Assembly (NCBI RefSeq): GCF_003334355.1
Contig: NZ_QOWP01000104.1
Origin: Escherichia coli
GTDB taxonomy: Bacteria; Pseudomonadota; Gammaproteobacteria; Enterobacterales; Enterobacteriaceae
Direction: 5' to 3' (one strand)
Length of the DNA stretch: 660 nt
Part shown: one piece after another, positions 1 through 77 of the stretch
Layout: every line of letters starts with the position of its first letter
How positions within the stretch are numbered: the stretch's first letter is position 1
Program-made: the position numbers and the translations under genes
The notes under the pieces: model-generated
The model's database searches: none
What the model was told of the DNA's origin: nothing
The model's input: the letters and a program-made list of their open reading frames with translations, nothing else

Positions 1-67
1 AAACCACCGCAAAAGCATCCGGCGGCAGGCCGTCCACTTCCAGTGTGAAACGTAATCCGGTTGACAT
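1..67 (-). CDS. vgrG: 5' end (first 22 codons) of a VgrG-family type VI secretion spike protein; the gene continues beyond the left edge of the window
   Basis: Reverse complement of 1-67 reads ATG TCA ACC GGA TTA CGT TTC ACA CTG GAA GTG GAC GGC CTG CCG CCG GAT GCT TTT GCG GTG GTT = MSTGLRFTLEVDGLPPDAFAVV. GGAGG sits 5 nt upstream of the ATG. The frame is open upstream to an in-frame TGA (plus 226-224) with no ATG/GTG/TTG in between, so the ATG at 67-65 is the only plausible start. No minus-strand stops occur in 1-120. Positions 1-60 are about 58% GC against about 33% for the upstream region, and codons are enterobacterial-type (CTG, CCG, GAT). The peptide fits the conserved VgrG N-terminal pattern (hydrophobic-E-V-x-G-L ... 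VV-x-F). Product identity rests on 22 residues recognised from memory, not on a search. Confidence 0.65.
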   Translation of the reverse strand, partial: MSTGLRFTLEVDGLPPDAFAVV

Positions 68-72
68 AGCAA

Positions 73-77
73 CCTCC
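73..77 (-). promoter_or_regulatory. Shine-Dalgarno sequence (GGAGG) for the vgrG start codon
   Basis: Plus-strand CCTCC at 73-77 is GGAGG on the minus strand, separated from the ATG (67-65) by 5 nt (TTGCT), which is canonical spacing. Confidence 0.75.

Follow-up and report, generated by a model that had tools for sequence, protein, structure and literature searches.

The 660-nucleotide stretch of Escherichia coli DNA analysed here, hereafter referred to as the window, is very probably the promoter-proximal edge of an orphan vgrG-eagR-rhs island located between nfrB and cusS, corresponding to vgrG1/z0707 of EHEC O157 and to the locus called "vgrGO1". Read on the minus strand, its first 67 bases open vgrG behind a strong ribosome-binding site; they are preceded by an AT-rich leader, which is cut at position 587 by an IS1 element that runs on past the right edge. 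On the evidence of closely related loci, the source genome is highly likely to carry an intact vgrG followed by eagR-rhs cargo. Orphan islands of this type have already been described for EHEC O157 and STEC and are annotated in thousands of genomes. Particular to this window are only the IS1 junction at 586/587 and the fact that the window alone cannot tell which toxin follows or whether vgrG is intact.

The vgrG start and the protein that it opens

The 5′ end of vgrG, encoding a type VI secretion system (T6SS) spike or tip protein, occupies positions 1..67 on the minus strand, where an ATG at 67..65 opens 22 codons plus one base before the frame continues beyond the left edge. The direct translation is MSTGLRFTLEVDGLPPDAFAVV. 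The reverse complement of positions 1-95 reads ATCATTATTCATTTTACTGGAGGTTGCT, then ATG TCA ACC GGA TTA CGT TTC ACA CTG GAA GTG, and the same reading goes on with GAC GGC CTG CCG CCG GAT GCT TTT GCG GTG GTT T. The bases directly ahead of the ATG end in ...TTTTACTGGAGGTTGCT, and a Shine-Dalgarno motif, GGAGG, read from the sequence at 73..77 on the minus strand, lies 5 nt ahead of the ATG and is kept in SE11 and in vgrG1 of EDL933. A preliminary description of this DNA had proposed a minus-strand open reading frame with a GGAGG ribosome-binding site, and it is accurate in its details: the ATG lies at 67..65, the GGAGG at 77..73, the peptide is exactly as given and the assigned interval, 1-77, is right. 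The vgrG start is missing from the mechanical list of open reading frames because the frame runs beyond the window edge.

The window holds no more than the first 22 codons of its vgrG, and near-identical loci serve as proxies for the remainder. The vgrG start is no chance open reading frame: over positions 1-586, the E. coli strains TUM1881 and 203740 have the same DNA (100% identity) and SE11 differs little (99.8%), and in these strains the ATG of the window is the start of an annotated 633-residue VgrG (T6SS tip protein VgrG). At least 80% of the window is present in 2,651 of 5,426 complete E. coli genomes (megablast), and the feature beneath the match in these genomes is nearly always annotated "type VI secretion system tip protein VgrG"; among the 25 best hits, an annotated VgrG lies beneath the match in 23. 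Read from the shared ATG, the frame is 633 codons long in all six proxies that were translated, and the six proteins are 98-100% identical to one another. The 633-residue proteins of TUM1881 and 203740, whose DNA equals window 1-67 and the 519 bp of leader at 100%, share the 22-residue N-terminus, identifying the window's frame as vgrG by sequence identity.

The proposal that this frame encodes a VgrG spike protein, for which comparison with VgrG and Phage_GPD profiles had been suggested, is borne out by the full-length proxies. The D5 protein passes both TIGR03361, with 624.6 bits (cut-off 186.35), and TIGR01646, with 440.2 bits. It contains Pfam Phage_GPD, the gp27-like hub domain (residues 29-327, 1.3e-74), and, for the gp5-like OB fold and the C-terminal beta-helix/trimerisation part, Phage_base_V (residues 384-450, 2.4e-15) and Gp5_trimer_C (residues 467-560, 1.3e-21). 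Compared with solved structures, TUM1881 VgrG matches P. aeruginosa VgrG1 (4MTK) at 2e-94 and P. protegens VgrG (7Q5P) at 2e-92, the proxy VgrG being aligned to both over residues 13-539 with E values of about 1e-92 to 1e-94. The last 73 residues of the TUM1881 protein (561-633) match 3WIT, a "Putative Vgr protein", at 1e-37; 3WIT is presumably the C-terminal domain of VgrG1 from E. coli O157 (EDL933). The alternative of a non-VgrG family for the 22-residue N-terminus is effectively refuted: nothing favours such an assignment beyond two secondary chimeras, described below and themselves derived from vgrG, whereas the window DNA, including the 519 bp leader, matches thousands of loci whose VgrG passes the family models.

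The island between nfrB and cusS and its cargo

In the proxies, the island sits between nfrB and cusS with synteny throughout. K-12, in which the island is absent, holds only 149 bp between nfrB and cusS, and homology between K-12 and SE11 resumes only inside the last few codons of cusS, at its 3′ end; the whole leader is therefore island DNA. In the IS-free strain SE11, the native leader, measured between the vgrG ATG and the cusS stop, is 736 bp long with a GC content of 31.7%, and cusS lies on the same strand. The upstream gene is cusS, or IS1 and then cusS, and no T6SS core gene is found there, in keeping with the earlier suggestion that vgrG heads its own transcription unit as an orphan island.

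The original description of Rhs/vgr elements is reportedly that of Wang, Zhao and Hill (1998). The closest described counterpart of the present locus is that of EDL933, in which vgrG1 (z0707), the DUF1795/eagR gene z0706, rhsF (z0705) and rhsG (z0702) make up a vgrG island separate from the main T6SS cluster, the T6SS island itself lying elsewhere on the chromosome (PMC7216683). The EDL933 island and the proxies are alike in their slot next to cusS and in their gene order. EDL933 VgrG is 97.9% identical to the proxy that matches window 1-586, with the same first 22 residues, and the EDL933 leader aligns throughout with the window leader, conserving both the Shine-Dalgarno motif and the ATG. 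However, the EDL933 leader is shorter (593 bp versus 736 bp; 94.7% identity over 65% of the leader query) and carries no IS1, and the C-terminus of its Rhs protein differs from those of D5, TUM1881 and SE11.

A second described system, "vgrGO1-eagR-rhs-ct" of STEC and other E. coli, combines a VgrG, a DUF1795 chaperone and a PAAR-Rhs-CT protein away from the main T6SS cluster, and the proxies have these same domains. The review PMC6730261, citing Ma et al. 2017b, states that vgrGO1 and eagR are required for delivery of Rhs-CT. Gene order and PMC7216683 suggest that "vgrGO1" is this exact locus. More distantly, VgrG aligns with its counterparts in the EagR1-RhsA-VgrG1 system of Pseudomonas protegens (7Q5P) and in P. 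aeruginosa (VgrG1, 4MTK), which have the same chaperone/effector domain set and serve as structural paradigms for prePAAR Rhs effectors with Eag chaperones; these systems belong to a different genus and carry different toxins, and the mechanism outlined below is transferred from them by homology.

The preliminary description had placed any cargo to the left of vgrG, beyond the window, and every intact proxy indeed carries there a DcrB/DUF1795 adaptor, a prePAAR-PAAR-Rhs toxin and small open reading frames. The order is the same in each of them, namely vgrG, a gene for a 153-residue "DcrB-related protein", an rhs gene for a protein of ~1,620 residues and one or two small open reading frames; in some of them displaced 3′ fragments of rhs come next, along with an ISAs1/H-repeat transposase, and then nfrB. 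The 153-residue adaptor, present in D5, TUM1881, 203740, SE11, E17 and EDL933, matches Pfam DcrB (PF08786) at 1.7e-27, the family formerly named DUF1795. Its EDL933 orthologue, z0706, has been described as a DUF1795 protein, or EagR (PMC7216683). In the proxy Rhs protein, the N-terminus contains prePAAR_I (4e-5) and PAAR_motif (1.7e-9), and the body contains YD repeats (1e-68) and Rhs_assc_core (1e-18).

The C-terminal toxin of Rhs, judged by RefSeq product names, varies among strains with identical or nearly identical window-equivalent DNA. It is a zincin-like metallopeptidase in D5, is unnamed in TUM1881 and is an AHH nuclease in SE11, where a metallopeptidase fragment is found displaced as well; an internal stop interrupts rhs in 203740. 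The kind of cargo can therefore be predicted, the toxin cannot. The small open reading frames after rhs, 69 residues in D5 and 129 residues in TUM1881, gave no NCBIfam match and are, by their position, putative immunity genes. Past the main rhs gene, SE11 (L005:924-3962) and EDL933 (L009:1-827) carry displaced rhs 3′ fragments encoding a zincin-like metallopeptidase toxin with its own small open reading frame, an arrangement consistent with successive displacement of toxin/immunity modules.

Homology and the literature suggest how the products of such an island may work together. The 633-residue VgrG would form, as a trimer, the spike of a T6SS whose genes lie elsewhere in the genome, provided that such a system is present, with the PAAR domain capping the VgrG tip. 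The DUF1795/EagR chaperone would shield the N-terminal transmembrane (prePAAR) region of the PAAR-Rhs toxin, while the Rhs shell, or cage, would bear the C-terminal toxin, which varies between strains, for injection into neighbouring bacteria, and the small gene downstream of rhs would give self-immunity. Should the source genome be without T6SS core genes, the island would be an inert remnant.

The AT-rich leader and transcription of vgrG

The non-coding leader of the vgrG island, truncated in the window, occupies positions 68..586 on the minus strand. Its GC content is 31.6%, versus 55% for positions 1-67, ~57% for vgrG and 52% for cusS. The preliminary description had noted a long AT-rich region upstream of vgrG; the region is AT-rich as stated, but it is not open-ended, since it ends at 586 and IS1 begins at 587.

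A related leader is found in the RhsE remnant of E. coli K-12 (yncH to the rhsE pseudogene and ydcD), where window 124-520 recurs with 81% identity and with an unchanged orientation relative to rhs. This copy, located in a K-12 derivative at L006:5803-6211, at another site on the chromosome, abuts a 5′-truncated rhsE, the vgr gene, eagR and the 5′ part of rhs being deleted; the K-12 deletion ended inside the leader. The presence of an 81% leader copy beside rhsE therefore indicates that the leader travels with this class of Rhs element.

In an alignment of five leader variants, paralogs included, the best-conserved block corresponds to about window 399-460. A consensus scan places within this conserved core a candidate sigma-70 promoter, TTATCA-16 nt-TATATT, at 399..426 on the minus strand, the only promoter-like site on that strand. 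The two hexamers are unchanged in the K-12 rhsE and E17 variants, whereas the spacer varies. The window contains 3 promoter-like sites versus 3.0 expected by shuffling, and since this count equals the chance expectation, the site is a lead rather than a finding. It is possible that TTATCA-16-TATATT is the island promoter; the transcript would then begin with ~325 nt of 5′ leader, on the assumption of a start a few bases past TATATT, near window 390-395.

Whether vgrG might instead be co-transcribed from upstream, by read-through from cusRS in the native arrangement or from the IS1 transposase gene here, was weighed against this. Such read-through would agree with the position of cusS upstream on the same strand in IS-free strains and with the insAB frame of IS1, which points toward vgrG, and a scan of the window found no terminator-like site. 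However, the 736-bp leader that parts cusS from vgrG is island DNA rather than part of the cus locus, it is also found ahead of the paralogous RhsE-type copy elsewhere on the chromosome, and IS1 insertions are strongly polar. We therefore regard co-transcription from upstream as quite unlikely. Transcription of vgrG probably starts within the retained leader, which includes the candidate promoter at 426..399, so that the operon is not necessarily silenced by the IS1 at 587.

Other features of the leader were searched for as well. An Rfam search of the leader returned sub-threshold matches only (E 0.18-0.5, far below gathering scores), and a structured RNA was rejected, there being no Rfam family and the fold of the putative 5′ leader being no better than that of shuffled sequences (z = +1.1). 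Small open reading frames of 21-51 residues in the leader were likewise rejected as genes, as no locus has them annotated and indels in paralogous leaders disrupt their frames or starts. A repeat search of the window found short two-copy matches and AT-rich palindromes only, none of them meaningful.

IS1 in the leader and the intactness of the gene

The right end of an IS1 element occupies positions 587..660 on the minus strand, beginning with the terminal inverted repeat at 587 (GGTAATGACTCC...), running on past the right edge and oriented like vgrG. Within it, the 3′ end of insB, encoding the transposase, lies at 658..602 on the minus strand with its stop at 604..602, and the last 18 codons read VELHDKVIGHYLNIKHYQ before the stop. 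The sequence from 587, GGTAATGACTCCAACTTACTGATAG..., can be aligned with the ends of IS1 in D5 and TUM1881, and positions 587-660 differ from the IS1 ends in all loci by 1-3 mismatches (96-99% identity); every hit has the annotation "IS1 family transposase" over the matching stretch. With both the terminal inverted repeat and the InsB C-terminus found at 587-660, the window shares these two elements with IS1 of the IS1A/IS1X2 type.

IS1 cuts the leader 519 bp upstream of the vgrG ATG, ~217 bp short of the native end. It thereby severs the distal ~217 bp of the leader and, if it is a simple insertion, cusS as well. The 9 bp beside it at 578..586, CTTTATATG, would in that case be one copy of the target-site duplication; CTTTATATG should then recur at the far end of IS1, followed by ATAGATGGCTTG... 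The exact leader/IS1 junction at 586/587 is absent from the 5,426 complete E. coli genomes and, as an exact 41-nt query, from the GTDB species representatives and metagenome contigs. The IS1 at 587 marks the window's copy as a strain-specific variant of the locus and could serve as a typing marker.

The same leader carries independent IS insertions in other strains. In D5 and about 50 other genomes, IS1 lies 9 bp further out, with the duplication ATAGATGGC (D5 L001:14587-14595), and in GZ2408P it lies 8 bp further out, with the duplication GATAGATGG (L004:11586-11594), so that the three IS1 sites of the window, GZ2408P and D5 are no more than 10 bp apart (equivalent to window 578-595). In 203740, IS1 is located at window 451-459, with the duplication AACGTTGTT (L003:12451-12459); the leader IS1 copies of D5, GZ2408P and 203740 are thus flanked by 9-bp duplications. 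TUM1881 (L002:12794) and ET881 have IS1 207 bp further out and have lost cus-side genes, and E17 carries an IS3 98 bp upstream of vgrG (L008:7496-8724). The IS1 copies seen all point toward vgrG, in a sample that is biased to IS1-bearing loci and to this orientation, since an IS1 end was part of the query.

The leader looks like a hot spot for IS insertion. IS1 prefers AT-rich targets, and this preference, the simplest explanation, probably accounts for it. Two more speculative readings can be put forward. The cargo to the left might be a new kind of Rhs C-terminal toxin/immunity pair, different toxins being already present among strains that match the window exactly, and the closely spaced IS1 insertions might reflect more than target preference and be selected for altering the expression of a normally silent vgrG-rhs operon; we consider such readings very unlikely.

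The ATG of the window also heads deletion chimeras, in two of the 25 best-matching loci. In ET881 (L010:5482-8067), residues 1-72 of VgrG are fused to Rhs from residue 715 to its end, forming an 861-residue protein annotated as an intact "RHS repeat domain-containing protein". In GZ2408P (L004:10276-11067), an AraC/EnvY-like C-terminus follows residues 1-91 of VgrG, with an IS3 alongside, and the annotation is that of an AraC-family pseudogene. Both chimeras share the ATG and the ribosome-binding site of the window. Since they start at this very ATG, the 22 residues in the window are no guarantee of a full VgrG, and for the same reason we infer, rather than read, the intactness of the gene and the type of cargo here.

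It is accordingly conceivable that the gene is decayed, the frame behind the ATG having been truncated or made chimeric by deletion or IS-mediated rearrangement, so that no functional spike or cargo is encoded. The ET881 and GZ2408P fusions show this outcome behind the same ATG, K-12 keeps only the leader copy, abutting a 5′-deleted rhsE, and an IS1 is already present in the leader of the window, with IS1-associated loss of flanking genes in TUM1881 and ET881. Against this stand the 23 of the 25 best hits with an annotated VgrG and the six translated proxies, every one of full length and nearly identical to the others. We therefore consider decay unlikely and favour the view that vgrG is intact in the source genome and is followed by eagR-rhs cargo.

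The two loci with the outermost IS1 differ in what follows the element. In TUM1881 (L002:12794-13999), the upstream IS1 is followed directly by ybdF, cusRS, cusCFBA, pheP, ybdG and nfsB being missing, and in ET881 (L010:8809-10755), it is followed by a 5′-truncated cusC. Both losses look like IS1-associated adjacent deletions that have removed the copper/silver efflux locus.
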